Positions 5,429 to 25,394 of a stretch of DNA of 64,000 bases are shown here, in pieces. The notes under the pieces are model-generated. The model ran no database searches and was not told where the DNA came from. It saw nothing but the letters and a program-made list of their open reading frames with translations. Numbering within the stretch: the stretch's first letter is position 1; each line of letters starts with the position of its first letter. A program made the translations under genes and the position numbers. Origin of the DNA: Gemmatimonadales bacterium (GTDB lineage Bacteria > Gemmatimonadota > Gemmatimonadetes > Gemmatimonadales > GWC2-71-9); contig DASZCN010000060.1 of the NCBI GenBank assembly GCA_035943095.1, forward strand, positions 3,710 to 67,709, written 5' to 3'.

Positions 5429-5836
5429 ATGGCGAGCCAACCGGTCCGGTTCGAACGGATATTTCACGTGGCAGCAGCAGACATCGATGAGCTGGGCCAC
5501 GTGAACAATGTCGTGTACCTCCGCTGGGTCCAGGACGTCGCCGCGGCGCATTGGGAGTCCGCCACGACGCCGGCGGAACGAGCCGGGGTCGGGTGGGTGG
5601 TGTTGCGACACGAAATCGACTACAAGCACCCCGCTAGGCCCGGCGATGACGTCATCGCCCGCACCTGGGTGGGACCTCCGGCCGCCGCGACGTTCGAGCG
5701 GCATACCGAGATCTCGCGCGCGGCCGACCGGCGGGTGCTCGCCCAGGCCCGATCGCTCTGGTGTCCCGTGAACCCCAAGACGGGCCGGGTGCAGCGCATC
5801 GACCCCGCGCTGCACGACCGGTTCTACATCTCGTGA
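5429..5836 (+). CDS. Acyl-CoA thioesterase (YbgC/FadM hot-dog fold)
   Basis: DIDELGHVNNVVYLRW motif. Confidence 0.88.
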   Translation: MASQPVRFERIFHVAAADIDELGHVNNVVYLRWVQDVAAAHWESATTPAERAGVGWVVLRHEIDYKHPARPGDDVIARTWVGPPAAATFERHTEISRAADRRVLAQARSLWCPVNPKTGRVQRIDPALHDRFYIS

Positions 5837-6060
5837 GGCCTCGTCTCGTCGTAGCGGCGTGCGTGTTTCTGGTCCCGGTCGCGGCGCTCATCTTCGTGCT
5901 GCACCCGGTCTGTGTCCCGCTCACCGCCGAGGACCTGAAGACGTTCAACGTCCCGATCGAGCAGCGCACCGACCGCGATTTCTATCTGAAAGTCTTCCAG
6001 AAACGGGACGGCCAGTGGTATCAGTGCAAGACGTGGATCTCGCGATTCGTTTTCTTCTGA
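5833..6060 (+). CDS. Small hypothetical membrane protein (~75 aa)
   Basis: GTG overlaps the upstream TGA; one hydrophobic segment then a polar domain with two Cys. Confidence 0.6.
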   Translation: MRPRLVVAACVFLVPVAALIFVLHPVCVPLTAEDLKTFNVPIEQRTDRDFYLKVFQKRDGQWYQCKTWISRFVFF

Positions 6061-6061
6061 C

Positions 6062-6067
6062 TAGGTT
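6062..6067 (+). promoter_or_regulatory. Putative -10 box (TAGGTT) of a leaderless transcript
   Basis: TANNNT 6 nt before ATG 6074; no SD. Confidence 0.35.
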
Positions 6068-6073
6068 TCCCGC

Positions 6074-6664
6074 ATGCTGTTCGTCCTGGATAATTACGAC
6101 TCGTTCACGTACAACCTCGTCCAGCTGTTCGGCGAGCTCGGTGCCGAACCGGTCGTGTATCGCAATGATGCGCTCACCGTCGACCAGGTGATCGCCCTGA
6201 AGCCGACGGCCGCGGTGCTGTCGCCGGGTCCGGGGACCCCCGGCCAGGCCGGGATCCTGGTCCCCCTCGTGAAGGCCCTCGCAGGGAAGGTGCCCATTCT
6301 GGGCGTCTGCCTGGGCCATCAGGCGATCGGTGAGGCGTTCGGCGGACGGGTGGTGCGGGCGGAGCGGTTGATGCACGGCAAGACGTGCGAGGTGGTCCAC
6401 GAGGACGACGAGCTGTTCGAGGGTGTTCCGAGCCCGGTCACCGGGATGCGCTACCACTCCCTCGTTGTCGAGCCGAAATCCTTGCCCAAGGATCTCGTGA
6501 TCACCGCCTGGAGCGCAGACCGGCCGAAGGACGCGGAGATCATGGCGATGAAGCACCGTCGGCACGCGCTGTACGGCGTCCAGTTCCACCCCGAGTCCAT
6601 AGGGACCGAGCACGGCAAGCGCCTGCTCGAGAACTTTCTGAGGGTGGCGCACGCGACGGTGTAG
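6074..6664 (+). CDS. trpG: Anthranilate/aminodeoxychorismate synthase component II (glutamine amidotransferase)
   Basis: DNYDSFTYNL, SPGPG, GVCLGHQ, RYHSL, QFHPES; trpG vs pabA cannot be decided. Confidence 0.85.
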   Translation: MLFVLDNYDSFTYNLVQLFGELGAEPVVYRNDALTVDQVIALKPTAAVLSPGPGTPGQAGILVPLVKALAGKVPILGVCLGHQAIGEAFGGRVVRAERLMHGKTCEVVHEDDELFEGVPSPVTGMRYHSLVVEPKSLPKDLVITAWSADRPKDAEIMAMKHRRHALYGVQFHPESIGTEHGKRLLENFLRVAHATV

Positions 6665-6739
6665 CGGACTTAACGCTCGTCACCACCGCCGCTTAGTATC
6701 AGGACTAGACGCCACGGCACGGATTTTGTATGTTCCCCC

Positions 6740-9159
<2,420 letters not shown>

Positions 9160-12082: not shown

Positions 12083-13410
12083 TGGCTACCATGTTCGCGC
12101 TAGCGCTCGTTCAGCAACCCGCACCCCCCGTCGATACATCGCGCGGCCGGCCGTGCAAAGTCGTGATCGACTCGGTGGGCCGGCAGGCGCAGCAGGTGGA
12201 GGTGCGAGCGGGGGAGACGAACGTGTTCGCGGGCGGCGGCGTCCTGGCGCACTGTGAGGGCACGGGCACCACGCTCTCCGCCGACAGCGTCGCCTGGTTC
12301 GCGGGCGTTCGGCGGTTCGACATGATCGGCCAGCGCAACATTGTGCATATCCGCGACACCACGCTCACGCTGGACGCGACGACGGCAGCCTACTTTCTCG
12401 GCCAGGAGCGACTCGAGGCGCACAGGAACGTAGTGGCGGTGAACCGCACGACGGGATCCGTGCTGCGCGGCCCCAATCTCAACTATTACCGTGCCGTGCC
12501 CGGTATCCGCGACACGATCGAGATGTATAGCACCGGCCGTCCCACCATCGACTACCACGCCACCGCGGATTCGGGCGAGCCGTACATCATCGTGGCCGAT
12601 CGAGTCCGCTTGAAGGGGAACGATCGGATGTGGGGAGGCGGTCGCGTGACGATCGACCGCAGTGACTTCGCCGCCCAGGGCGATTCGATGCAGCTCGATC
12701 AGCGCGCGGGATTTGGAGTGCTCGTCGGCAAGCCGGCCGTAGAGGGGAAGGGCGCCCGGGCGTACAAGCTCACCGGCACGCGTATCGAGCTGGGCCTGGC
12801 GGGCCGCGAGATCAAGCGCGTCAAGGCACTGGGCCAGGGCGTGGCGACCGGATCGGATTGGCGCCTCACGGCGGACACGATCCACCTCTTTTTAGACCGC
12901 AGCAAGTTGCAGCGGGCCTTCGCCTGGGGTCCGAAGGACTCCGTCAAGGCACACGCCGTGTCCACGACGAACACCATCCGGTCTGACTCCCTGGCGCTCG
13001 ACCTGCCGGACGAAGTGCTCACGGAGGCGCGTGCCTTCGGGCACGCCTTCTCGACGTCCAAGAAGGATTCGACCAAGAACGCCGATGTGGATTGGATCGC
13101 CGGCGATTCGCTCACGGCCCGCTGGACGCAGGTTCCGGACTCCGCCGGCACTCTCAAGAGCAAGATGCACGAGCTCATTTCCCGAAACAATGCGCGCGCG
13201 CTCACCCACATGCAGAGCGAGCACGACACCGCGGGTCCGTCCATCAATTACTCACGGGGGCAGATCATCCGCATCGTCCTGAAGAGGGAGAAGGTGGACA
13301 CCGTGATCGTGACCGGGCACGCCGACGGCGTGCAGCTCGAGCATCGGCCGCCGGCACCGCCCGACACCACGAAGCACAAGACGCCTCCCCCCACTGTGCC
13401 CAACCGATGA
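12079..13410 (+). CDS. OstA/LptA-like periplasmic beta-jellyroll protein (443 aa)
   Basis: Signal-like N-terminus; repeated beta-strand pattern (ADSV/ADRV/ADTI/GDSL); between lptC and lptB. Confidence 0.7.
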   Translation: MMATMFALALVQQPAPPVDTSRGRPCKVVIDSVGRQAQQVEVRAGETNVFAGGGVLAHCEGTGTTLSADSVAWFAGVRRFDMIGQRNIVHIRDTTLTLDATTAAYFLGQERLEAHRNVVAVNRTTGSVLRGPNLNYYRAVPGIRDTIEMYSTGRPTIDYHATADSGEPYIIVADRVRLKGNDRMWGGGRVTIDRSDFAAQGDSMQLDQRAGFGVLVGKPAVEGKGARAYKLTGTRIELGLAGREIKRVKALGQGVATGSDWRLTADTIHLFLDRSKLQRAFAWGPKDSVKAHAVSTTNTIRSDSLALDLPDEVLTEARAFGHAFSTSKKDSTKNADVDWIAGDSLTARWTQVPDSAGTLKSKMHELISRNNARALTHMQSEHDTAGPSINYSRGQIIRIVLKREKVDTVIVTGHADGVQLEHRPPAPPDTTKHKTPPPTVPNR

Positions 13411-14615
13411 CGGCCCAGCTACCGACGCGACATGTGGCCGATCTGGTGGCCGAGCGATACTCCGCACTCCCGCTCGCCGCTGCGGCGCTCGCCCGCGTCG
13501 CCGACGGGCGCGGTGGGGCAACACTCGGCGAGCTGGCGATCGCGTACCGGGAGGAGTTCCTGAAGCTTCGGGCGCGCTCGAGAGGCGCTGGGGGGGGAGG
13601 CCTGCCCGAACTGGGCGCGTTGTCGGTCGAGCAGTTTCGGGCGGAGCTGCGCTCGGTGCTGCCCCGGCTCGCCGTCCTCAGGATTGTCGAGTACCCCGTC
13701 GGTCTGCTGACCGATAGCACGCCAATCACCTTCACCGGCGATATGTGGGCCGAGGTACTCGCGGACCGGGAGGACATCGCAGACCGGTTGCTCGACGCGG
13801 CCGAGCGCGCGGTCGCCCGCGCCGAGGCCGCCAGTGGCGAGCATCCGGTCATCACCGGCGGCAGCCGCCTGGAGGCGCGAGGACTCCTCAAGGTCTACAA
13901 GAGCCGCCCGGTCGTGAACGACGTGAGCGTACAACTCGAGCAGGGCGAGATCGTCGGCCTCCTCGGGCCCAACGGAGCCGGCAAGACGACGACCTTCTAC
14001 ATGATCACGGGCCTGGTGCGGCCGGACGGGGGCCACATCGAATTCGACGGCCGGGACATCACCGACGAGCCGATGTACCGCCGGGCGCGGATGGGCATCG
14101 GTTACCTGGCGCAGGAGCCGTCGGTCTTCCGGAAGCTGACGGTAGAGGAGAACGTCCAGGCAATTCTCGAGACGCTGCCGATCGAGGGCGATGAGCGCGC
14201 GCACCGGATGGAGCGCCTGCTCGACGAGCTGGCGATCAAGCACTTGCGGCGCCAGAAGGGCTTCCAGCTCTCGGGCGGCGAGCGGCGCCGTCTCGAGATC
14301 ACCCGCGCGCTCGTCACCGAGCCCAAGTTCATGCTGCTCGACGAGCCGTTCGCGGGCGTGGATCCGATCGCCGTGCACGACATCCAGACCATCGTGGCCG
14401 GACTCCGGCACAAGGGCATCGGGGTTCTGATCACCGACCACAATGTGGAGCAGACGCTCGACATCGTGGATCGCGCCTACATCATGTTCGAGGGCAAGGT
14501 CCAGGTCGCCGGCAGCGTCCGGGAGCTCGTGTTCTCCGACCGCGTCGCGAACCTGTACCTCGGGCCCACGCTCACCGCCCGACTCCGCGCCCGTCTCGGG
14601 CAGCCCCCGGTATGA
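13407..14615 (+). CDS. lptB: LPS export ABC ATPase LptB with ~153-aa N-terminal extension
   Basis: GLLGPNGAGKTT, YLAQEPSVFRKLTV, LSGGERRR, LLDEPFAGVDP, ITDHNV; ATG overlaps the upstream TGA. Confidence 0.93.
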   Translation: MTAQLPTRHVADLVAERYSALPLAAAALARVADGRGGATLGELAIAYREEFLKLRARSRGAGGGGLPELGALSVEQFRAELRSVLPRLAVLRIVEYPVGLLTDSTPITFTGDMWAEVLADREDIADRLLDAAERAVARAEAASGEHPVITGGSRLEARGLLKVYKSRPVVNDVSVQLEQGEIVGLLGPNGAGKTTTFYMITGLVRPDGGHIEFDGRDITDEPMYRRARMGIGYLAQEPSVFRKLTVEENVQAILETLPIEGDERAHRMERLLDELAIKHLRRQKGFQLSGGERRRLEITRALVTEPKFMLLDEPFAGVDPIAVHDIQTIVAGLRHKGIGVLITDHNVEQTLDIVDRAYIMFEGKVQVAGSVRELVFSDRVANLYLGPTLTARLRARLGQPPV

Positions 14616-16072
14616 AGACAGGCCTCCAGCAGCACGCCGCGCTGTCGCAGCAGCTCCGGATCAATCCGCGGCTGTACCAGGCGATGGATCTGTTGTACAT
14701 GCCGCTGCTCGACCTCCAGCAGCACTTGAAGCAGGAGCTGCTCGGCAATCCGTTCCTCGAGCTGCTGGAGCCAGAGGACGAGACCGAGGTACCCCTCGCG
14801 GAGGAGGCCAAGGAGGACGCGAAGGAAGCCGAAAAGAACGACGAGCCGGATTGGGAAGACATCCTGCTCGACGACGGCTCGGACTCGAGCGCACCGCCGC
14901 GCGACCTGAGCGAGGCCCGCGAGTACGTGGAGCCGGTGCCGGTCGAGACCAAAGACCTCGCCGATCACCTGCGCGAGCAGGTCCGGCTCCTGGATCTGAC
15001 CCCTCGCCAGCAGCTGCTCGCGGAAGAGTTCATCGGCAACATCGCGGAGGACGGCTACCTCGGGGCCACACTCGAGGAGATCGCGCGCGGCGCGAATCAG
15101 CTGCTCGAGGAGCACGCCGTCGAGTCCGAGCAGGACGTGCAGCCGCAGCTATACACGCCTGCCGAGGCCGAGGAGATGCTCCGCATCGTCCAAAAGCTCG
15201 ATCCGCCCGGCGTCGGCTCCCGCGATCTGCGCGAGTGCCTGCTGCTGCAGCTCGAGGCGCGGGGCGAGACGGAGACCCTCGCGTACCGCCTGGTGCGGGA
15301 GGCGTTCGAGGACTTGAAAGCGCACCGCTGGAGCGACCTCGGCAAGCGCTTCGGCCTCGACGCGGCCGAGGTGCAGAAGGTGGCTGACGACCTGGCCAAG
15401 CTCGATCCCAAGCCCGGGCTGCAATACTCGTCTGCGAACGAAGCGTACATCATCCCAGACCTGCTCGTGGAGAAGATCGACGGCGAGTACAAGGTCTTCT
15501 TGAACGATTCAGGGCTGCCGCGACTCCGCATCTCGAAGACCTATCAGGACATCGCGCGCGACAAAAAGAAGTTCCAGGGCGAAAACAAGGACTTCATCAA
15601 CCAGCGCATGAACAGCGCCCACTGGATGATCCAGGCGATCGAGCAGCGGCGCCAGACCATGCTCAAGGTCATGAACTTCATCGTCGACCGGCAGCGGGAG
15701 TTCTTCGAGAAGGGCGTCGAGTACTTGAAGCCGCTCACGCTGCGCGAGGTGGCCGACGTCATCAACATGCACGAGAGCACCGTCAGCCGGGTGACCAACG
15801 AGAAGTACGTCCAGACGCCGCGCGGCCTGCTGCCGCTCAAGTTCTTCTTTTCGAGCGGGCTCTCGACCACCACGGGTGAGGACGCCAGCGCCCGCGCGAT
15901 CCGCGCCCAGATTCAGAAGATGGTGTCGGACGAGGACCCCAAGAATCCCCTCACCGACCAGCAGATCGTCGAAATGTTCGCGCAGAAAGGGGTCAAGATC
16001 GCGCGCCGGACCGTCGCCAAGTACCGCGACCAGCTGAGCATCCTCCCGGCCCGCATGCGAAAGCGTTTGTGA
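14612..16072 (+). CDS. rpoN: RNA polymerase sigma-54 factor
   Basis: Q/L-rich region I, PLTLREVA, HESTVSRV, RpoN box ARRTVAKYR. Confidence 0.97.
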   Translation: MKTGLQQHAALSQQLRINPRLYQAMDLLYMPLLDLQQHLKQELLGNPFLELLEPEDETEVPLAEEAKEDAKEAEKNDEPDWEDILLDDGSDSSAPPRDLSEAREYVEPVPVETKDLADHLREQVRLLDLTPRQQLLAEEFIGNIAEDGYLGATLEEIARGANQLLEEHAVESEQDVQPQLYTPAEAEEMLRIVQKLDPPGVGSRDLRECLLLQLEARGETETLAYRLVREAFEDLKAHRWSDLGKRFGLDAAEVQKVADDLAKLDPKPGLQYSSANEAYIIPDLLVEKIDGEYKVFLNDSGLPRLRISKTYQDIARDKKKFQGENKDFINQRMNSAHWMIQAIEQRRQTMLKVMNFIVDRQREFFEKGVEYLKPLTLREVADVINMHESTVSRVTNEKYVQTPRGLLPLKFFFSSGLSTTTGEDASARAIRAQIQKMVSDEDPKNPLTDQQIVEMFAQKGVKIARRTVAKYRDQLSILPARMRKRL

Positions 16073-17025
16073 GCCTCGCCACCGGCGCCGCGACGCCAGA
16101 GGTGAGCGTCCTCGTCCCGGCCAAGGACGAGGCAGAGAATCTCCATGAGTTCGTCCGCCAGGCGCGCGAGGCGCTGTTGCCGCTGCCGTACACCTGCGAG
16201 ATCGTCGTGATCGACGATGGCAGCCACGATGGCACTGCGGAGGCGCTGCGCGATCTCTCGGCAAAGCATCCGTTCGTGCGGGTCGTGACCCATCGCAGCC
16301 AGCGCGGCATCGCGGATGCCCTGGCGTCCGGCGCCGACGCCGCGCGCGGCCGGATCCTCGTGTTCTATCCCGCCGACCTGCAGTACCGGCCGAGCGACAT
16401 CCCCGCCTTGGTCCAACCGATCCTCGAAGACTCGGCCGACCTCGTGACCGGGACGAAGCAGGGCCATTACGAGAAGCGCTTCGTCTCGTGGGTCTACAAT
16501 GGCCTGTGTCGCTGGTTGTTCGGGGTTCGGGTCGCCGACTTGAATTCAGTGAAGGCGTACCGTCGGGAGGTGATGGACGGCCTGACGACGCGGCCCGACT
16601 GGCACCGGTTCATGGTGGTCATCGCGGCGACGCAGGGCTTCCGCCTCGCGGAGCGCCCGGTGCCGTTGCAGCCCCGACGGGCCGGAAAGTCGAAGTTCGG
16701 CATCGGCCGCATTCCAGTAGGCGTGCTGGATCTCATGTCCGTATGGTTCCAGCTGCGATTCGGCCGCAAGCCGATGTTGTTCTTCGGTGTCTCAGGAGCC
16801 GTGCTGATCCTGTTGGGTTTCCTGGTCGGCGTGTACGCGCTCATCGAGCGCTACGCGCTCCACCAGGGCAACCGGGCGTTTCTTTATCTGGTCCTGCTGT
16901 TGGTGCTGGCCGGCCTGATCCTGTTCGGGTTTGGCTTCGTGGGGGAGATGGTTGCCAGCATGCGCGAGGAGGTCCGAGCGCTCGCGCGTGAGGTCGAACA
17001 TCTGAAGGATCGCCCTACCTCGTAA
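16069..17025 (+). CDS. GT2 glycosyltransferase, polyprenyl-phosphate sugar transferase type (GtrB/ArnC/CsbB-like)
   Basis: VLVPAKDE, IDDGSHD, C-terminal two TM helices. Confidence 0.85.
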   Translation: MSLATGAATPEVSVLVPAKDEAENLHEFVRQAREALLPLPYTCEIVVIDDGSHDGTAEALRDLSAKHPFVRVVTHRSQRGIADALASGADAARGRILVFYPADLQYRPSDIPALVQPILEDSADLVTGTKQGHYEKRFVSWVYNGLCRWLFGVRVADLNSVKAYRREVMDGLTTRPDWHRFMVVIAATQGFRLAERPVPLQPRRAGKSKFGIGRIPVGVLDLMSVWFQLRFGRKPMLFFGVSGAVLILLGFLVGVYALIERYALHQGNRAFLYLVLLLVLAGLILFGFGFVGEMVASMREEVRALAREVEHLKDRPTS

Positions 17026-17091: not shown

Positions 17092-17132
17092 GCTGATGCG
17101 CATCAGCCCCGAGTGGTCGATGTAGCATCGAC
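17092..17132. promoter_or_regulatory. Two related palindromes: GCTGATGCGCATCAGC (17092-17107) and GTCGATG-TAG-CATCGAC (17116-17132)
   Basis: Perfect 16-bp palindrome and a 7-bp inverted repeat sharing a GATG..CATC core, upstream of a DNA-binding protein gene. Confidence 0.45.
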
Positions 17133-17181
17133 GCCCTACCGATATGAAACGGCGCGTCGCACATTTGCCCACGAACGTGCG
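17130..17181 (+). promoter_or_regulatory. Upstream motif copy A: GACGCCCTACCG ... GCAC-ATTTGC ... ACGTGCG
   Basis: 11/12 match to 18690-18701; both start 102 nt before the respective start codon. Confidence 0.5.
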
Positions 17182-17231
17182 GGCGCGCGGATTGCTGCGC
17201 GACACTTGGATTGCCGGACAAGGGGTCGCGC

Positions 17232-18617
17232 GTGCCGCCATTACCGCTTACCACCCTGCTTCAAACCGCGTTACCGGAGCTTTCAACCCGGACGCGAGCC
17301 ATCCTGAGCACCCTCGGCTGCTACAACGGCGACGTGCCCGCGGCGGGCGAGGTGGCCACCCTGATCGGCATGCGCAGCCGGTTTCAGCTCGCCCGGACGC
17401 TGCGGCAGGAAGGGCTCCCGCCCTTCGAGGAGCTGGCCGGGTGGGCGCGCGTTCTTTACTGGCTGTTTGAGGCCGAGGGCACGGGCGTCTCGCTGCACCG
17501 CTTGGCCCGGCGCGCCCGCCTCGATGCGGCAAGCGCCTACCGGCTCGTGCGTCGCGTGACCCGGATGCGGTGGTCTGAGCTCCGGCGCATGGGCATCGCT
17601 GCGGCAGTGGAGCGCCTCCGGGAGCGCTGCCACGGCAGACCCGTGAGCCGCTGCGCCTGTTCGCGACCACCGGCGCCGGCGAGGCGCGCGCCCAGAGTCC
17701 GTACGCCCGAAGCAACCAGTCGCCGATGCGCGCCGAGCAGCCCTCACCATCCCGCCGGTACCCTCGTGCCAGGGCTCCTTGTGAACGGTGCGCCCTTCGA
17801 CGTCGCGATCGGCCCAGATGGGACCGCGTACGTCACATGCGTGCGCGCCGCTCGCCTCGAGCGTGTAGCGCTCGAGCCGTTTCGGTCGATTGGTCGCGTA
17901 TCGACGGGCCCGGTGCCGACCCGGATCGTGTTCAACGCAGCGGGTACGTTCGCCTATGTGACGAATCAGTTCGCCGAGGAGGTGGGCGTCATCGACGTTG
18001 AACGCGGGGAGCAGGTAGCGTCGATCGACGTGCCCGGCCATCCGTTGGGAGCCGTGCTGGCGCCCGACAACCGCACGCTGTTCGTCGCGACCAATCTCGA
18101 CCGTCTGCATGCCATCTCTCTACACTCCGGAAGAATGAGGTCCTCCGTCTCCGTGCCACAGGTATGCACGGAAATCGCGCTCGACGCGAGCGGACACCGG
18201 CTGTTCCTCCCGACCTGGAACGCAGGACGCATCCTGGAGTTCGAGACGAGTACCCTCCAGGTGATGCGACGCTTCGACGTCGGCGGAAAGGTGCAGGGAG
18301 TGGCGCTGCCGTCGGACGGCCGGACATTGTTCGCGGCCAACGAGGACGGCTGGCTGGATGTGATCCAGTTGAGTAGTGGGGTTCGCACCCGCCTGCAGTT
18401 CGGCACCACGACTTTCGGCGTGCGGGTGAGTCCCGACGATGCCCTCGTGTACGTTACCCTGCTCGGAGCGGGGCAGGTGGTGGTACTCGACCGGTGGACG
18501 CTCCAGGTGGTGACTACGCTCCACCCTGGGGGCCAGCCCCGGCGCGTCGATTTCGACTCCTCGGGCCGCTTCGCGCTCATCGCGAACGAGGCCGGATGGG
18601 TGGATCTGGTGCGGTAG
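17232..18617 (+). CDS. AraC-type HTH domain fused to a YVTN/YncE beta-propeller
   Basis: GTG 17232 with AAGGGG SD (ORF opens at TTG 17211); two HTH-like motifs (AAGEVATLIGMRSRFQLARTL; SLHRLARRARLDAASAYRLVRRVTRMRWSELR); YVTN-type blades (AYVTNQF). Confidence 0.75.
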   Translation: MPPLPLTTLLQTALPELSTRTRAILSTLGCYNGDVPAAGEVATLIGMRSRFQLARTLRQEGLPPFEELAGWARVLYWLFEAEGTGVSLHRLARRARLDAASAYRLVRRVTRMRWSELRRMGIAAAVERLRERCHGRPVSRCACSRPPAPARRAPRVRTPEATSRRCAPSSPHHPAGTLVPGLLVNGAPFDVAIGPDGTAYVTCVRAARLERVALEPFRSIGRVSTGPVPTRIVFNAAGTFAYVTNQFAEEVGVIDVERGEQVASIDVPGHPLGAVLAPDNRTLFVATNLDRLHAISLHSGRMRSSVSVPQVCTEIALDASGHRLFLPTWNAGRILEFETSTLQVMRRFDVGGKVQGVALPSDGRTLFAANEDGWLDVIQLSSGVRTRLQFGTTTFGVRVSPDDALVYVTLLGAGQVVVLDRWTLQVVTTLHPGGQPRRVDFDSSGRFALIANEAGWVDLVR

Positions 18618-18689
18618 TTCACGCCGGTTATGACGTTTTGTGCGCCGGCTCTCACTTCGGCGCCGCGCCACGACTAAACTCGAGGCAGG

Positions 18690-18736
18690 GACGCCGTACC
18701 GCACAGTTGCGGTCCGGCACTTGCGTAGTACGTGCG
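18690..18736 (+). promoter_or_regulatory. Upstream motif copy B: GACGCCGTACCG ... GCAC-TTGC ... ACGTGCG
   Basis: Counterpart of 17130-17181. Confidence 0.5.
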
Positions 18737-18791
18737 ACAGTCATAGTCAACGTATGGCGGTATCGTAACGCGCAGCAGGATCGGAGAGCGT

Positions 18792-20012
18792 ATGAAGCGT
18801 CCTCGGTGCTTCTTCATTTCTGTTCTGGCGGTCGTCGCGGCCCTGGCCTCTGCATGCAGTAGCGCGACTGCGCCTACGACGCCCGTCGACCCCGTCCTTG
18901 TCGGGATCTTCCTCGCGCCGCGCGATACGAGCATTCCCCAGAAGCACAGCGTGCAGCTGCGCTTGACCGCGCTCGACTCGGCCGGCAATGAGATTGAGAA
19001 CGTGAGCGTGCGGCCTACCTATACGACCAACAACCCCGCGCTCGTATCCGTGAGCCCGCAGGGGTTGGTACAGTCGCTCGGCCCGGCGGGCCACGCAACG
19101 ATCACGGCGCACATCGGCGACTTCGGCGATACGGTCAGCATCTTCGTATTCGACTCGAGCCTGGCCGGCCGCGTGCCGCTCACGAGCCGGGCCTATGCCG
19201 TCGCGATCTCCTCCGCGGGGGTCGTCTACGTCGGTCAGCCCGACTTAGGACGCCTGATTCGGGCTGATCTTCCCAACATGGCGTTTACGACCTCAGTCAC
19301 GGTCGGGGATACCCCAACCGAAGTCGCGTTCAATTCGACCGGGACGAAAGCCTACGTTACGAATCAATTCAGTCAGAACGTGGGTGTGATCGACGCGGCG
19401 TCCAACACCCAGACGGCGACCGTGCCAGTCGCCGGCAATCCGTTCGCCGTGATCGTGGCGCCGGGAGACAGCATCGTTTGGGTCACGACGACCGCCGACA
19501 GCCTCTTCGGCATCAATGCGTCGTCCTTGCAGATCATACACCGGCTGCAGCTACCCATCATTTCCAATGGGTTCGCCATACGGGACTCGCTGCTCTACGT
19601 GAGCACCCGGGATGCGGGGATCGTGACCGAGATCAACCTGAAGACGACCACGGTCTTGCGCACGTTGGCCGTGGGTGGTGCGCCGCAGGGGATCGTCGTC
19701 TCTCCCGACGGCACCCAGTTGTACATCGCCAACGAAAACGCCACGCTCCAGTTCTGGAGTCTGACGAGCAACAGCTCGCTTGGCACGACCTCCCTGGCGG
19801 GCCGGGGTTTCGGATTGGCGCGGCGTCCGACGGATGGAAACCTCTACGTCACGACGCTCGAGGCCGGACAAGTGCAGGTCGTCGATCCGACGAGCCACGC
19901 GATTGTGCAGGTGATCAATGTTGGAGGGATCCCGCGCCGGATCGCGTTTACGGCCGACGGGCGCACGGGCGTGGTGGCGAATGAGGCGAGCTGGGTCGAT
20001 TTCCTCCGCTAG
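18792..20012 (+). CDS. Predicted lipoprotein: Ig-like (Big_2-type) domain + YVTN/YncE beta-propeller
   Basis: GGAGAG SD; signal peptide ending LASAC22; TTNNPALVSVSPQGLV..GPAGHATITA Ig-like motif; AYVTNQF blades. Confidence 0.85.
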   Translation: MKRPRCFFISVLAVVAALASACSSATAPTTPVDPVLVGIFLAPRDTSIPQKHSVQLRLTALDSAGNEIENVSVRPTYTTNNPALVSVSPQGLVQSLGPAGHATITAHIGDFGDTVSIFVFDSSLAGRVPLTSRAYAVAISSAGVVYVGQPDLGRLIRADLPNMAFTTSVTVGDTPTEVAFNSTGTKAYVTNQFSQNVGVIDAASNTQTATVPVAGNPFAVIVAPGDSIVWVTTTADSLFGINASSLQIIHRLQLPIISNGFAIRDSLLYVSTRDAGIVTEINLKTTTVLRTLAVGGAPQGIVVSPDGTQLYIANENATLQFWSLTSNSSLGTTSLAGRGFGLARRPTDGNLYVTTLEAGQVQVVDPTSHAIVQVINVGGIPRRIAFTADGRTGVVANEASWVDFLR

Positions 20013-21196
20013 GTTTTCGCGGCGGCGTAGCATTCCTCCCACTGGGCCACGATGCTCTCCCAGCTGAAGTCGTTGCGCACGTGCTCCCGCCCCGCGCTGC
20101 CGAGCCGGACAGCGAGACCCCGCTCGGCGGCGAGGCGCCGCAGCGCCGCCGCCAGCGCCGCGGGATTACCGGGCGGCACCAGTAGCCCGGTTTCCCCGTC
20201 CACGATGATGTCCGGTATCCCGCCGATGTCGCTTCCGATCACCGGCACGCCGTAGCTCATCGCCTCGAGCAGCACGACACCGAGCCCTTCGGTGTCGCTC
20301 CGCGAATCGAGGATCGACGGGAGCGCGAAGGCGTCCGCCGCCCCGTAGGCGGCGCGGAGCTCCGCCGCCGACACCCGGCCGCGTAGCGTGACCCGGTCGC
20401 CCAAGCCGCCCTCGCGCACGAGCGCCTCCAGCCTGGCCCGCTCCGGTCCATCGCCGATCACATCGAGCCGGACATCCAAGGTCGGCGACAGTCGCCGCAC
20501 GCCCTCGATCAGCTCGGCGACGCCCTTGCGCTCTACCAGACGCCCCACGAACAGGACGCGGAAGCCACCATCTCGCCTCGCAGCGGGGGAGGGAGGCGCC
20601 ACGGTGGGAAGTCCCACGGTGTAAGGGATCACCCGCACCGGGACGTCGCTGACGCGCTTGATCTCACGGGCCGTGTATGAGGAGATCGCGACCACCTGGT
20701 CCGAGGTGTTCAGCGCCCAGCGGACGAGCCAGCGGAGCCAGGGGAGTGAACCCTGCACCCAACGCAGCTCCACGCCGTACCACAGCGTCACGAGTCGCGC
20801 GCCACACGTTGCTCGTGCTACCGCGCCAAACAGCGCGTGCGGCATCGGCCAGTGCACGTGCACCACGTCGTAGCGGCGGCGGCGGCAGAGGCGCCAGACC
20901 GCCAGCATCCCGCCGGCCACGTAGAAGGCCGGCATCAGCTGGTAGCGCCACGAGCGCCGCATGCGGTCCGGTGCGGCCTCGTCATGGGTCAGATCTTCCC
21001 ACCGCGCCGGGAAGTAGCGGAACCGGTGCACCGGAATGCCTTCGTACAGGGCACCGCCTCCGCCGCGGTAGGCCGAGCAGAACACTTCCACGTCGTGCCC
21101 CGCGGCTTGCAATCGCTTGAGGAGCTCCACCAGCCAGGGCGCGATGACATCGCCCTCGTGGCGCGGGAACGCGGTGACGATGTGAAGGATGCGCAC
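20009..21196 (-). CDS. GT4 (GT-B) glycosyltransferase
   Basis: GTG start MRILHIVTAFP; FVGRLVERKG, EGLGVVLLEAM, GGIPDII. Confidence 0.9.
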   Translation of the reverse strand: MRILHIVTAFPRHEGDVIAPWLVELLKRLQAAGHDVEVFCSAYRGGGGALYEGIPVHRFRYFPARWEDLTHDEAAPDRMRRSWRYQLMPAFYVAGGMLAVWRLCRRRRYDVVHVHWPMPHALFGAVARATCGARLVTLWYGVELRWVQGSLPWLRWLVRWALNTSDQVVAISSYTAREIKRVSDVPVRVIPYTVGLPTVAPPSPAARRDGGFRVLFVGRLVERKGVAELIEGVRRLSPTLDVRLDVIGDGPERARLEALVREGGLGDRVTLRGRVSAAELRAAYGAADAFALPSILDSRSDTEGLGVVLLEAMSYGVPVIGSDIGGIPDIIVDGETGLLVPPGNPAALAAALRRLAAERGLAVRLGSAGREHVRNDFSWESIVAQWEECYAAAKT

Positions 21197-21204
21197 GGCG
21201 GTGA

Positions 21205-21212
21205 AGTATAGT
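21205..21212. promoter_or_regulatory. Overlapping divergent -10-like boxes (TATACT on -, TATAGT on +)
   Basis: AGTATAGT between divergent genes; TATACT lies 8 nt before the GT4 GTG. Confidence 0.4.
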
Positions 21213-22287
21213 GCGCCTGTGCGTGGGGGGGGGAGCGCGTTATCTTTACCGGCCGCTCGATCACCGTGTCCACTCCACCCGGTCACACACGCTGACCTCG
21301 CCATCGCCGACGGACCCAGCCACCCGGCGCGCCCGAGTCATTCGCGCCGTTAAGGCGGTGCTTCAAGTCTTCGCGATCGGGGCCGCCGTGTGGGTGCTGC
21401 TCCGCCTGGCACGACCCAACTGGCACGCGATCACCGCCGTGCCGGTCACGATCCACTGGGGCACGCTCGCGCTTGCATCCGTCGTCTGGCTCGGGTCGTT
21501 TACTTTCCTCGTGCAGCTCTGGGCCGCGAGTCTTGCGTGGTGGAACGAGCGCCTGCGGGGCATTGGGGCGCTCCGGATGTTCGTCCTGAGCAATCTGGCG
21601 CGTTACATCCCTGGTGCGATCTGGCAGTTCACCGGGCTCGCACTCTTCGCGATAGAGGAGCGCGTATCACCGCTCGCCGCCGCGGCGGCTGTGCTCCTCC
21701 AGCAGCTCGTGCTGCTCGCCACGGGGCTCCTCATCGCCCTCGCGTTCGCGCCGGCCATGTTGGGCCCGTTCGCGGCAGCGCTCCCGCTTTGGTTGCTGCT
21801 CACGGTCGTCGCCGCCGGGCTGGGATTGCTCCTGTGGTTATTCCCGGTCGCGCTGCCGGCGCTGCAACCGCGTCTCGAGCGGGTCCTCAAGCGCCGCCTG
21901 CCGCTGCCCAAGCCCCGATCGAGGAGCTTCCTCCGCTACCTGTTGGGCTCCGCGCTCGGATGGGTGGGCTACGGGATCTCGTTTTGGCTGTTTGCGCGGT
22001 CGTTGCTCGGCGACGGGGCCCCCGGCCCGCTCGTCGCGGCCACGGCGTTCGTCACGAGCTATGTCGCAGGAATCATCGCGGTGTTCGCGCCTGGCGGCAT
22101 CGTCGTACGCGAGGCCGCCCTGGTCGCGGCGTTGGCCGGCTCCATCGGCGCGGACCGCGCGTTCCTCGTCGCCGTGGGCGCGCGCTTGTGGCTCGTGACG
22201 CTCGAGATCATCGGCGCTCTGGTCCTCATCGCCTCGGGCGCCGGTCGGGGGGTCAATCAGGGCTTCCGCAGCACGAAGACGAACTGA
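21211..22287 (+). CDS. UPF0104 / lysylphosphatidylglycerol-synthase-TM (flippase-like) membrane protein; true start probably further downstream
   Basis: SNLARYIPG, APGGIVVREA motifs; multiple TM segments. Confidence 0.8.
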   Translation: MRLCVGGGARYLYRPLDHRVHSTRSHTLTSPSPTDPATRRARVIRAVKAVLQVFAIGAAVWVLLRLARPNWHAITAVPVTIHWGTLALASVVWLGSFTFLVQLWAASLAWWNERLRGIGALRMFVLSNLARYIPGAIWQFTGLALFAIEERVSPLAAAAAVLLQQLVLLATGLLIALAFAPAMLGPFAAALPLWLLLTVVAAGLGLLLWLFPVALPALQPRLERVLKRRLPLPKPRSRSFLRYLLGSALGWVGYGISFWLFARSLLGDGAPGPLVAATAFVTSYVAGIIAVFAPGGIVVREAALVAALAGSIGADRAFLVAVGARLWLVTLEIIGALVLIASGAGRGVNQGFRSTKTN

Positions 22288-22916
22288 TATCGCAGCGGCG
22301 GCACCAGGGAGACGAGGCGGAGCAGGAGGCGCAGGAGGATCCGCCCGGGTCGAAAATTCTTCAGGATGGCGGGCCCGGAGTCCGTCCGCACGTCGACGAC
22401 CTCAAACCCCGCCGCTCTGAGCACGCGCTCCCACCCGCCTCGCGTCGCGCGGAATTCCAGCGGTTGCTGTGTGCGCACGTAGAAGTTTGGAACCACCACC
22501 ACGGCGAGGCCGCCCGGCCGTAGGACTCGAAACGCCTCATGCAGTCCGCGATGGAGATCGGGGAAGTGCTCGAGCGATCCGAACGAGAAGACCCGATCGA
22601 ACGCGCGATCTCGGAAGGGGAGCGACGTGCCGTCGCCCTGGACCCACCTGGCCCCGGGGGTCGTGCGGTGGGCCAGCGTCAGGGCGCGTCGCGAGAAGTC
22701 CAGGCCGACCGCCAGTTTCCCCCCCCCGCGCGCCAGCGAGAGGCGAGCACCCCAGCCCACGCCCGAGCCGAGGTCGAGGAACGCCGTGCCGGTGAGCGGC
22801 TGGAGCGGGCGCAGCGCCCGCCACACGCGTTCGAGATTCGGATGCTCGACATCCTCGTCGAAATGGTACTCTGCCTCGTAGAATTCGCGCGGGGCGGGGG
22901 GGCCGGGGGGGGTCAT
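22257..22916 (-). CDS. Class I SAM-dependent methyltransferase
   Basis: LDLGSGVG, GLDFS, GDGTSLPF..RAFD, RVLRPGG; ATG 22916. Confidence 0.88.
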   Translation of the reverse strand: MTPPGPPAPREFYEAEYHFDEDVEHPNLERVWRALRPLQPLTGTAFLDLGSGVGWGARLSLARGGGKLAVGLDFSRRALTLAHRTTPGARWVQGDGTSLPFRDRAFDRVFSFGSLEHFPDLHRGLHEAFRVLRPGGLAVVVVPNFYVRTQQPLEFRATRGGWERVLRAAGFEVVDVRTDSGPAILKNFRPGRILLRLLLRLVSLVPPLRYQFVFVLRKP

Positions 22917-23030
22917 GGGCCGCGGAAAGCTAGTGTCGGCGCCCCGCAACGGCCATGCTTGCTCACCTTCCGCCACTCCGAATAGCTTTCGCCGCCCTCG
23001 CTGCCCAACATCGCAACGCAGAGGATAGTC

Positions 23031-25394
23031 TTGGACGAGGCGTGCCAACCCAAGCGACCGACGTTGATAGCCACGGCCGTCTTCATGCTGTGGCCGTTGC
23101 TGCTCTCCCTCCCCATGCTCGCCGGGATGTGGCTCGCGAGCCCCTTGAGCGACCAATACAATGCCAGCGTCCCGTTCCAGGCCTGGAGCGCCGAGTGGTT
23201 CAAACGCAGCGGCCACCTACCGCTCTGGAACCCCGAGCTGTTCGGTGGGCTGCCATTCGTCGCGGCCGGGAGCGGCGACATCTTCTACCCGACCTGGTTG
23301 CTTCGATTCCTCGTGCCCGCCACGACCGCCGGTAACCTGAGCTTTTTCGCCCATTACGTGCTCGCCGGCCTGTTCACGTACCTGCTGCTCCGGCGTCTGC
23401 ACGTCGGGTGGATCGGCTCGGTGATCGGCGGTCTGTCCTACGAGCTGTCGGGACTGATCGCGTCCTACCCATCGCCGGGGCATGACGGCAAGCTGTTCGC
23501 TTCCGCGATGCTGCCGCTCATGCTCCTCGGGCTTGTGCTGGCGCTCCGCGACCGACGCTGGGAGGGCTACCCGCTCCTCGGATTGGCGACGGCGCTGACG
23601 CTGCTCGGTCACTTCCAGCTCGCGTACTACTCGCTCATCGTCGCGGGGCTGTTCGCCCTGTACCTCACGGTCGAGGAGGGCGGGACGAGCAGGGGAGGGG
23701 AGCGGGTGCTCCGGCTCGGCACGGCGCTCGCCGCCGTGCTGATCGGATTCGGAGTGGCCGCGATACAGATCCTGCCGTTCTTCGAGTACATCCCGTTCTC
23801 GCCACGCGCTCAGGGTTACCACGGGTTCGAGGGATCCACGTCGTATGCGATTCCCTGGAGTCACGTGCCCGAGTTCTTTATCAAAAACTTCGTGGGCTCC
23901 TCGCCTCAAGGCACGTATTGGGGGACGAATCCCATCAAGCTCCACTCGGAGTATTTGGGCCTACCGGTGGTCGCCCTGGCCGTGCTCGGCGCGATCGGGT
24001 GGGCGCGGGAGCGGCGGCGGCTCGTGCTCTGGGTGGGTGGCATCGGGCTGCTGTTTCTCCTCATCAGTCTCGGCGCCGCCACTCCCTTCTACAAGGTGTG
24101 GTGGGCACTCATGCCGCTGGTCAAGAAGACTCGCGCCCCGGGAATGGCCTTCTTTGTGGTCGCCCTTGTGACGGCCCTGTTCGCGGGGCTTGGCGTTGAC
24201 CGCGTGCGCACCGCCGGACACCCGCGCGCAATGACCGTCGCGTTGATTATCGGCGGCCTCGTTTCGCTGCTCGGCATCACCGGCGCACTCGGCCACCTCG
24301 CGGAGGGTTTCGCAAGCGGCATCCAGGCCGCGACGGGGCGCGCGGTGGGGGCCGCCGCGACGGCCGACGCGTCCGCGATCCTCTGGGGTGCCGCGACGAG
24401 CGGACTCGCCCTGGCCGCTGTCGCGCTAGTCCTCGGCTATGGGTCGCACCGTCTCACTCCCCGGCTGCAGGCGCTCGCGCTGGTCCTGATCGTCGGCACG
24501 GACCTCTGGCTCAACGCGCGCCCGTTCTGGAGCTACATGAAGCCGTACGATCGGGACTCGCTGATCGACCTTCTCACCGCGACGCCCGCGCCGTACCGAG
24601 TGATCGATCTCGGTCCGACGTACCGCGGCTCGGTCCTCGCCACGTTCGACATCCCTCAGGTCTTGGGATACCACGGCAACGAGTTACGATACTATGACGA
24701 GCTCCTCGGCGGGCAGGGCGAATGGAGGAGCATCGGGTTCCTGCCACTCTGGGACTTGCTGGCGGTTCGCTACGCGATCGCGCCGGCCGAAGCGAGAAGC
24801 ATCGACTCGATTCCTGGATTCCGTCGCGTCCTCGACACCGTACCGATCCTGAACGGCGACGGGAGGCGCGCCCGCTTGTTCGAGCGCATCGCGCCCACGG
24901 CGTACGCGCGCGTGGTGCCGGGAGCCGTCAAGGCCGACTCGGCAACGATCATCCCCACGCTCGTCGACCCGCGCATGGACTACTCGCGGATCGTGATCTT
25001 CAGCAACGATCAGCCGGTGACGCCCGAGCCCCTGAAGCAAATGCCCCCACCGAGCCCGGCGCGGGCCGCCGTAAGCGCCTGGGAGCCTGGACGCATGACC
25101 GTCACCATCGATCCGCCGCCCCCACAAGCGGGCTACCTGCTGATCGCGGAAAACTGGTATCCTGACTGGCGGGCGAGCGTGGACGGCCGACCGTCTCCGG
25201 TGCTGCGAGGCGATTACAGCTTCATCACGGTCCCCGTGCCCGCGGCGGCGCAGCATGTCGAGCTCACGTTCCGCTCCGAGCTGTACGAGCGGGGCAGGGC
25301 GATCACCCTCGTGTCGTTGGCGGTGTTGCTCCTCAGCGTCTTGGTGACGGTGGCCCGCGGCGTGCGCTCCCCCCCCCCGGTTCGACATGGGTGA
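23031..25394 (+). CDS. YfhO-family multi-TM GT-C type glycosyltransferase
   Basis: GAGGA SD + TTG; LWNPELFGGLPF, SPGHDGK, C-terminal ENWYPDW..VDG, V.VPAAAQHVELTF; many TM helices. Confidence 0.8.
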   Translation: MDEACQPKRPTLIATAVFMLWPLLLSLPMLAGMWLASPLSDQYNASVPFQAWSAEWFKRSGHLPLWNPELFGGLPFVAAGSGDIFYPTWLLRFLVPATTAGNLSFFAHYVLAGLFTYLLLRRLHVGWIGSVIGGLSYELSGLIASYPSPGHDGKLFASAMLPLMLLGLVLALRDRRWEGYPLLGLATALTLLGHFQLAYYSLIVAGLFALYLTVEEGGTSRGGERVLRLGTALAAVLIGFGVAAIQILPFFEYIPFSPRAQGYHGFEGSTSYAIPWSHVPEFFIKNFVGSSPQGTYWGTNPIKLHSEYLGLPVVALAVLGAIGWARERRRLVLWVGGIGLLFLLISLGAATPFYKVWWALMPLVKKTRAPGMAFFVVALVTALFAGLGVDRVRTAGHPRAMTVALIIGGLVSLLGITGALGHLAEGFASGIQAATGRAVGAAATADASAILWGAATSGLALAAVALVLGYGSHRLTPRLQALALVLIVGTDLWLNARPFWSYMKPYDRDSLIDLLTATPAPYRVIDLGPTYRGSVLATFDIPQVLGYHGNELRYYDELLGGQGEWRSIGFLPLWDLLAVRYAIAPAEARSIDSIPGFRRVLDTVPILNGDGRRARLFERIAPTAYARVVPGAVKADSATIIPTLVDPRMDYSRIVIFSNDQPVTPEPLKQMPPPSPARAAVSAWEPGRMTVTIDPPPPQAGYLLIAENWYPDWRASVDGRPSPVLRGDYSFITVPVPAAAQHVELTFRSELYERGRAITLVSLAVLLLSVLVTVARGVRSPPPVRHG

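Follow-up and report, generated by a model that had tools for sequence, protein, structure and literature searches.

A predicted cytoplasmic regulator joining a divergent AraC-like domain to a YVTN propeller, and a conserved box upstream of propeller lipoprotein genes in Gemmatimonadales

We analysed a 64,000-nucleotide stretch of DNA (hereafter the window) from a Gemmatimonadales metagenome-assembled genome of 148 contigs and 3.44 Mb, in which two adjacent plus-strand genes encode related β-propellers of the YVTN family. Gene A (17232-18617) encodes a 461-residue fusion of an AraC-like DNA-binding domain, a linker and a seven-bladed YVTN propeller, and its product is predicted to be cytoplasmic. 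Gene B (18792-20012) encodes a 406-residue predicted lipoprotein with its lipidation cysteine at residue 22 (codon 18855-18857), a tentative immunoglobulin (Ig)-like domain at approximately residues 35-120 and a YVTN propeller at approximately residues 128-406. The spacer between the two genes contains a conserved asymmetric 18-bp box (18628-18645, plus strand), which is a candidate operator of A.

Full-length homologues of A share 45-78% identity with it at 98-99% coverage. The GTG codon at 17232, read as methionine, is the best start, because the product then begins MPPLPL, the same as the orthologues that start with ATG. An AlphaFold2 (AF2) model of the full-length protein, with a predicted local distance difference test score (pLDDT) of 88, consists of a helical domain (residues 1-134), a disordered linker (residues 136-168) and 27 strands that form seven blades at residues 178-461. 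The linker region (residues 135-177; 17634-17762, plus strand) is rich in Arg, Pro and Cys, is predicted to be disordered (pLDDT <50 at residues 136-168) and contains no hydrophobic segment. Its length and sequence differ among homologues, and alignment columns 135-240 are unconserved. A hydropathy scan of A detected neither a signal peptide nor a membrane-like segment. The maximum Kyte-Doolittle value over 19 residues was 1.3 for A and at most 1.7 in 31 homologues, always in propeller strands, and was 2.16 for the signal peptide of B. A Pfam search of A found no Reg_prop or YYY sensor, no HisKA or HATPase domain and no receiver domain. A is probably a cytoplasmic, one-component transcription factor. 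Its relatives are named "YncE family protein" or "DNA-binding beta-propeller fold protein YncE" by NCBI and JGI, annotations that hide the likely regulatory role.

To characterise the N-terminal domain (residues 1-134; 17232-17633, plus strand), a separate AF2 model was built from 21 homologous N-termini. The model has a pLDDT of 91 and contains eight helices at residues 5-13, 19-30, 38-44, 50-59, 65-84, 88-94, 99-110 and 114-134. The first helix is additional, and the last seven match the AraC/MarA domain in length and order; the helices at 50-59 and 99-110 are the predicted recognition helices of a bipartite helix-turn-helix (HTH) domain. The top ranks of a Foldseek search against the PDB were occupied by the AraC DNA-binding domain 2k9s, 3mkl, AraT, MarA, CdpR, ToxT and Rns, with approximately 105 aligned columns and a TM-score of approximately 0.7 on the target. 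Furthermore, the family alignment of the N-termini was compared by hhalign with seven canonical AraC domains, which had been found by PF12833 in the same genome and aligned with one another. The two profiles matched end to end over 104 of 112 columns (probability 93%, E 3.4e-7). The predicted recognition helices are the best-conserved part of A, and most of the invariant residues (R50, R55, Y103, R104 and R108) fall within them.

Sequence searches of the N-terminus with Pfam and NCBIfam gave weak and mixed HTH matches (IclR, Cro/C1, AraC) that left the family undecided. Among the 21 homologous N-termini, Pfam matched HTH_IclR in 15, HTH_AraC in 7 (best E 3.3e-5) and HTH_18 in 4. The HTH_AraC and HTH_18 matches with listed scores were all below the cut-offs, and in several relatives they spanned most or all of the profile. 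A profile search of the PDB with the N-terminal alignment gave no significant match. The ranking of AraC-type folds and the profile match indicate a true but very divergent AraC/XylS-type domain, which is placed N-terminally as in Rob and is likely to bind DNA. The first-pass annotation of the window, made from the letters alone, had named a two-HTH AraC-like N-terminus; the fold and the profile comparison bear this out, and only its assignment to a Pfam family above threshold failed.

When the N-terminal profile was used in a hidden Markov model search against 1.84 billion representative proteins, 577 clusters were retrieved at E <= 1e-3. Most of these are stand-alone proteins of 140-200 residues, and the fusions of 455-486 residues are a minority. 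In this respect the domain family is like MarA and SoxS, except that one of its branches has become joined to a propeller. Stand-alone copies also occur in genomes of the window's genus. Two such proteins of 150-183 residues lie at L016:1495-1950 and L018:1399-1950 (L numbers denote the compared loci of relatives), which belong to the window's genus and family. The gene after the L016 copy encodes a large multi-pass membrane protein that is ArnT/PMT-like by eye.

The propeller of A (residues 178-461; 17763-18614, plus strand) and that of B share 37% identity over 278 residues (E 9e-51) and are mutual nearest relatives within the 3.44-Mb genome. The scores for the YVTN repeat TIGR02276 were 51 bits for A and 86 bits for B against a cut-off of 27.85, and those for the YncE equivalog NF052280 were 43.8 and 63.9 bits, far below its cut-off of 400. 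The best structural match of the A propeller is 1l0q, an archaeal (Methanosarcina) S-layer YVTN propeller (24% identity, E 1.7e-20), and its structural neighbours include many protein-binding WD40 domains. Positions conserved in the fused and exported propellers alike occur in the NE.GW and GG.PR stretches, and seven residues are conserved in fused propellers only. The net charge of the fused propellers is close to zero (median +1; -3 in the window protein).

In regard to B, the predicted signal peptide MKRPRCFFISVLAVVAALASAC ends in LASAC and has a lipobox with Cys22, and B orthologues keep a Cys after the hydrophobic stretch or signal peptide. These results agree with the first-pass annotation, which had described A as lacking a signal peptide, B as a lipoprotein-type YVTN propeller and the two propellers as paralogous. 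The Ig-like domain that it had seen in B received sub-threshold matches in Pfam (Big_2, E 0.036; Big-like, E 0.007) and is tentative at this level. Lipoproteins of 620-675 residues with two tandem YVTN propellers are encoded next after the fusion at L004:5335-7362, L032 (approximately 6482-8368) and L081 (approximately 5661-7517).

More than 120 protein clusters at the 90% level match A over its full length and come from NCBI, JGI, ENA and Logan assemblies. Approximately 50 full-length copies are present in species-representative genomes, and two copies in some genomes. All are from soil Gemmatimonadales metagenome-assembled genomes except one contig labelled Acidobacteria, so the family is confined, as far as sampled, to soil Gemmatimonadales. 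The exception, L033 (QHWT01000129.1, labelled Acidobacteria gp6), carries a Gemmatimonadales cluster of family 2 glycosyltransferase (GT2), fusion and lipoprotein genes, in which the GT2 is 83% identical to that of the window, and the contig is probably mis-binned.

In a tree of 142 propeller domains, all 57 fused propellers fell on one side of a single branch (support 96), which requires one state change. This result indicates that the fusion arose once and is old. The suggestion that A carries a copy of the B propeller thus stands as to paralogy and falls as to recent copying. Relatives show the same gene order, lptB-rpoN-GT2-fusion-propeller lipoprotein(s)-(methyltransferase)-GT4-LPG_synthase_TM-YfhO, even where RpoN is only 75-78% identical to that of the window, and in most loci of this rpoN-GT2 context the fusion is followed by one to three propeller lipoprotein genes. 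The pairing of the two genes is therefore conserved in other Gemmatimonadales genomes, and the two genes are resident in an envelope-glycosylation neighbourhood rather than forming an inserted cassette.

This conserved order is at odds with the earlier view that the pair interrupts a glycosyltransferase neighbourhood, and a supposed richness in A/T-ending codons was not found either. A and B have G+C contents at third codon positions (GC3) of 0.81 and 0.82, respectively, within the normal range of the genome (median 0.835, 5th percentile 0.76); most flanking genes have values of 0.84-0.91 and the methyltransferase gene 0.75. No signal of foreign DNA was found in the GC or GC3 of the pair. An origin of the fusion in a frameshift or assembly error, or of the pair in recent foreign acquisition, can be dismissed for practical purposes: the source is an assembly of 148 contigs and the GC3 is slightly below that of most flanking genes, but the same architecture occurs in independent JGI, ENA, NCBI and Logan assemblies down to 45% identity, in a conserved gene order, with GC3 in the normal range and with the fused propellers in a single clade.

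A second group of paralogues lies in another context, after a gene of the isocitrate/isopropylmalate dehydrogenase family, and in at least one such locus, L004, the paralogous double-propeller lipoprotein gene directly follows the fusion. Tandem fusion genes are found at L043 (5001 and 6510) and L066 (approximately 5050 and 6436), both without the 18-bp box.

The box in the window, TTATGACGTTTTGTGCGC, starts 10 nt past the stop codon of A and lies 164 nt before the ATG of B. Comparison of the orthologous DNA after the stop codon of A gave the family consensus TTATGACNTTTGGNGCG[C], that is, TTATGAC(G/T)TTTGG(G/T)GCG(C), with CTTGC 6-7 nt downstream. The box lies 4-62 nt after the stop codon of A in 16 of the loci listed. 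The conserved blocks ATGAC and TGGNGCG are approximately 10 bp apart, about one helical turn, as expected for a single bipartite AraC-type domain.

We built a position weight matrix (PWM) from 15 orthologous instances and scanned the 3.44-Mb genome with it. The window box, at 31 bits, was the sole strong match. A second candidate box, on contig C12, was weak (18.8 bits) and lay inside a coding frame, and it was rejected. A scan of 791 kb of relatives' loci gave approximately 44 matches of at least 15 bits, every one in a fusion-bearing locus and all but one on the coding strand. The approximately 29 box sites that were examined are all upstream of a long open reading frame, mostly a propeller lipoprotein gene, sometimes with one box per gene; in three loci the box precedes the fusion gene itself.

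The box is missing from loci without the fusion, including L078, L079, L080 and L085, where the best scores were below 12 bits. The RpoN proteins of L079, L080 and L085 are 83-90% identical to that of the window and the RpoN of L078 approximately 76%, compared with 75-78% for most box-bearing loci. In the fusion-less relatives, the lipoprotein gene abuts the GT2 gene with almost no spacer. The arrival of the regulator coincides with the gain by the lipoprotein genes of their own box-bearing upstream region.

A tentative promoter of B (18652-18680, plus strand) follows the box, which abuts its -35-like element. It consists of a -35-like TCACTT (TTGCNN in relatives), a 17-nt spacer and a -10-like TAAACT. 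Most instances have a TAnnnT hexamer downstream of the TTGC element, at a distance that is commonly approximately 19 nt. A generic sigma-70 consensus scan found no promoter in the region, and no terminator was found between A and B; the B promoter is thus assigned by inference.

Several other candidate elements in and around the spacer were considered and rejected. A structured RNA in the A-B spacer had no Rfam match and a fold no better than those of shuffled sequences (z = +0.47). The box does not read as a sigma-54 promoter, because the spacing from TGG to TTGC is 3 bp longer than the consensus in every counted instance; to our knowledge, sigma-54 tolerates no change in spacing. A sigma-54-like GGGCGCG-N4-TTGCT at 17181-17196, which has the correct GG/GC spacing and ends 36 nt before the start of A, is of a quality that the window contains as often as expected by chance, and the small number of relatives' upstream regions that were read did not show it. 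The motif GACGCCNTACCG, which is exact in the window and lies 102 nt before both start codons, was rejected as a conserved regulatory element, being absent from every relative, including a genome of the same genus. GACGCC[C/G]TACCG occurs exactly twice in the window, at 17130-17141 and 18690-18701, each 102 nt before the start of A or B; related loci, that of the same-genus genome among them, all lack it, and this pair may be lineage-specific or due to chance.

In most paralogues of the second context, the first 120 nt after the fusion contain a strong common hairpin, GCGGCGGATGGGGAACAA.CCC.TCCGCCGC, followed before the next gene by a conserved stretch, ACGACCTACCGTC[GA]CAT ... CCCATATTCCGCCCACTTATGATGGAGTTG. 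The loci compared for this are L035, L036, L039, L041, L042, L044, L047, L049, L050, L052-L054 and L057. The hairpin and the stretch may represent a terminator and a second conserved regulatory element.

We propose a function for A from several observations: how the two domains fold and what they are homologous to, the lack of export signals, the conserved fusion of single origin, its conserved pairing with lipoprotein genes, and the uniqueness, conservation and co-occurrence of the box. A is, on balance, probably a one-component regulator of the paralogous lipoprotein gene or genes. Its propeller has a single, ancient origin in common ancestry with the neighbouring exported propeller lipoproteins, and a flexible linker ties it to the divergent AraC/XylS-type double HTH domain. 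The DNA-binding domain most likely recognises the asymmetric box, and one such domain could contact two successive major grooves, at ATGAC and TGGNGCG. A would then activate B, or with lower probability repress it, according to what the propeller of A binds. Candidates for the signal are small molecules, lipid-linked sugars made by the glycosylation enzymes encoded nearby, and protein partners. Control of B by A had already been suggested in the first-pass annotation; the presence of an operator-like box before B-type genes in fusion-bearing genomes only is consistent with it, and binding of the box by A is the predicted step.

The following points weigh against this proposal. Pfam HTH_18 (PF12833) and HTH_AraC (PF00165) do not match the N-terminus of A at their curated thresholds, and the Foldseek E-values for this domain were weak (0.1-3), though the ranking was consistent. 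No box was found in the fusion-bearing rpoN-GT2 loci L043, L055, L059-L061 and L066, and most paralogues of the second context have neither a box nor an adjacent lipoprotein gene; the link between A and the box is therefore not universal. The PWM was derived from fusion-bearing loci, so that the co-occurrence test is somewhat biased. The putative promoter is a poor one, with a spacing that ranges from 17 to 19 nt. A search for transcripts of the locus found its sequence in DNA runs only, those of the source metagenome.

The alternative that survives best accepts that A regulates via DNA and takes the propeller as a platform for protein interaction or oligomerisation, like a WD40-type scaffold, rather than as a sensor of a ligand shared with B. 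We regard this as a minority possibility that deserves serious weight. The partners of such a platform might be RNA polymerase, a cytoplasmic glycosylation enzyme or an unexported lipoprotein precursor. The WD40 domains among the structural neighbours are consistent with it, no catalytic or ligand motif was recognised in the propeller, and most of the positions common to both propeller families hold glycine or a hydrophobic residue of apparently structural role. However, E336, R437, N452, E453 and W456 are kept in the fused and exported propellers alike, which fits shared binding better than a role specific to A. This alternative alters the input alone, and the regulatory reading of A is left intact. 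The specific version in which the propeller of A acts as a true sensor in the cytoplasm and has its ligand in common with the exported paralogues, for example a product or lipid-linked intermediate of the GT2, GT4 and YfhO genes, is a doubtful one to which we give slightly less weight than to the scaffold.

Less probable still is that the box is not the operator of A and is instead an alternative sigma element or the site of another regulator, with A acting elsewhere or not on DNA. The box with its CTTGC loosely resembles the sigma-54 sequence TGGCACG-N4-TTGC, rpoN lies two genes upstream, and some fusion-bearing loci are boxless. The excess of 3 bp in the TGG-to-TTGC spacing argues against sigma-54; moreover, a general sigma element should recur, but the box occurs once in 3.44 Mb and is missing where A is missing. 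We therefore consider such a role of the box unlikely and recognition by A the better explanation.

The N-terminal domain might also not bind DNA at all, in which case A would be a cytoplasmic YVTN or lactonase-like enzyme or binder that carries an accessory helical domain, or its propeller would bind nucleic acid as YncE does. The database names of the relatives and the lack of a Pfam HTH match above threshold point in this direction, and E. coli YncE is reported, in the account that PMC13578688 gives of Kagawa et al. 2011 (pmid 22120742), to bind DNA via positively charged patches. The near-neutral charge of the fused propellers does not favour YncE-like DNA binding by the propeller, and the YncE equivalog score of A was 44 bits against a cut-off of 400. 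Furthermore, the AraC-type fold and profile evidence, the invariance of the arginine-rich predicted recognition helices and the predominance of stand-alone proteins of 140-200 residues in the domain family, as in MarA and SoxS, all argue for DNA binding by the N-terminus. This alternative is very unlikely.

The genes around the pair suggest a possible context for its function. The GT2 gene (16069-17025, plus strand) directly follows rpoN, and its product is of the polyprenyl-phosphate type and resembles ArnC, AglJ and PgfS over its full length. A family 4 glycosyltransferase (GT4) gene (20009-21304, minus strand) is convergent with B. The region 20009-25394 contains, on mixed strands, this GT4 gene (minus), a gene for a flippase-like membrane protein of the LPG_synthase_TM type, a methyltransferase gene (minus) and a gene for a YfhO-type membrane glycosyltransferase, assigned by Pfam at orthologous loci, by NCBIfam and by synteny. 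The large YfhO-type protein has faint similarity to PgfM1 and PgfM2. Pairs of GT2 and YfhO proteins (CsbB/YfhO, PgfS/PgfM) transfer sugars to surface proteins or to polymers of the envelope on the outer side of the membrane. By analogy, a pathway of this kind could have the propeller lipoproteins as its substrates or partners, which we offer as a lead.

Two further observations concern the flanks. The LptB-like open reading frame of the window (13092-14615) has an apparent long N-terminal extension, and ABC_tran proteins of 398-401 residues at the same position in relatives suggest that it is conserved. At L104:4860-4990, a poly-G-rich stretch after the GT2 gene is followed by an apparent C-terminal propeller strand (...IANEAGWVDFVR, stop), which may be a degraded or mis-assembled propeller copy.

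In the literature searched, we found no description of an architecture that fuses an AraC-type domain to a propeller. The features that would be new to one-component regulators are a cytoplasmic YVTN propeller as the sensor fold and an unrecognised branch of AraC/XylS domains. If the fused propeller senses the ligand of its exported paralogues, the level of a surface propeller lipoprotein would be set by an internal copy of its own binding domain, and several hundred MarA-like, domain-only relatives of AraC would be unrecognised by current domain databases. With A as the regulator, the comparison of genomes depicts an envelope gene that was constitutively co-transcribed and came under separate control when a DNA-binding domain was joined to a paralogue of the protein it encodes. 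The predicted operator offers a concrete test that requires no culture of the organism.

Among known systems, A would operate most like an AraC regulator of the Rob/MarA type. Rob of E. coli resembles A in having an N-terminal AraC-type double HTH domain followed by a separate effector domain, and MarA and SoxS are domain-only proteins, as are most members of the domain family of A. The effector domain of A is a seven-bladed YVTN propeller and not the GyrI-like fold of Rob, so that A is not a Rob-type protein. In contrast to the domains of Rob, MarA and SoxS, that of A is too divergent for Pfam, has an extra N-terminal helix and is restricted to Gemmatimonadales as far as sampled. Class II marboxes are asymmetric and abut the -35 element, and the candidate site of A, with approximately 18-20 bp next to a -35-like element, is similar. 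The position of the box directly upstream of this element resembles the class II layouts of MarA, SoxS and Rob and the araI layout of AraC.

The hybrid two-component systems (HTCS) of Bacteroides combine a Reg_prop double propeller, a YYY domain, a transmembrane segment, a kinase, a receiver and HTH_AraC in one polypeptide (PMC3243724). HTCS resemble A in joining a β-propeller sensor to an AraC-type output and in controlling neighbouring envelope or glycan genes (PMC3243724), a control that is predicted for A. Unlike A, HTCS have a periplasmic Reg_prop propeller, a transmembrane phosphorelay and a C-terminal AraC domain; A has a cytoplasmic YVTN propeller, an N-terminal DNA-binding domain and no membrane segment, kinase or receiver, and does not belong to the HTCS.

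By structure and by sequence, both propellers find their closest relatives among YVTN surface proteins, such as 1l0q and E. coli YncE, and the layout of B, an Ig-like domain plus a propeller, resembles the propeller-plus-PKD layout of 1l0q. Unlike A, 1l0q and YncE are exported and have no DNA-binding domain. LacI/GalR and LysR regulators have sensor domains with homology to periplasmic solute-binding proteins, as in the case of RbsR and RbsB. A differs from these regulators in its sensor fold, which is a propeller, and in its DNA-binding fold, and no transporter is involved. By analogy, the logic of A would be similar to that of LacI/GalR, in that a cytoplasmic sensor fold is paralogous to an exported protein encoded nearby. 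If both propellers bind the same molecule, A and B would form a propeller counterpart of the relation between LacI and periplasmic binding proteins, in which the sensor and its target are still adjacent.

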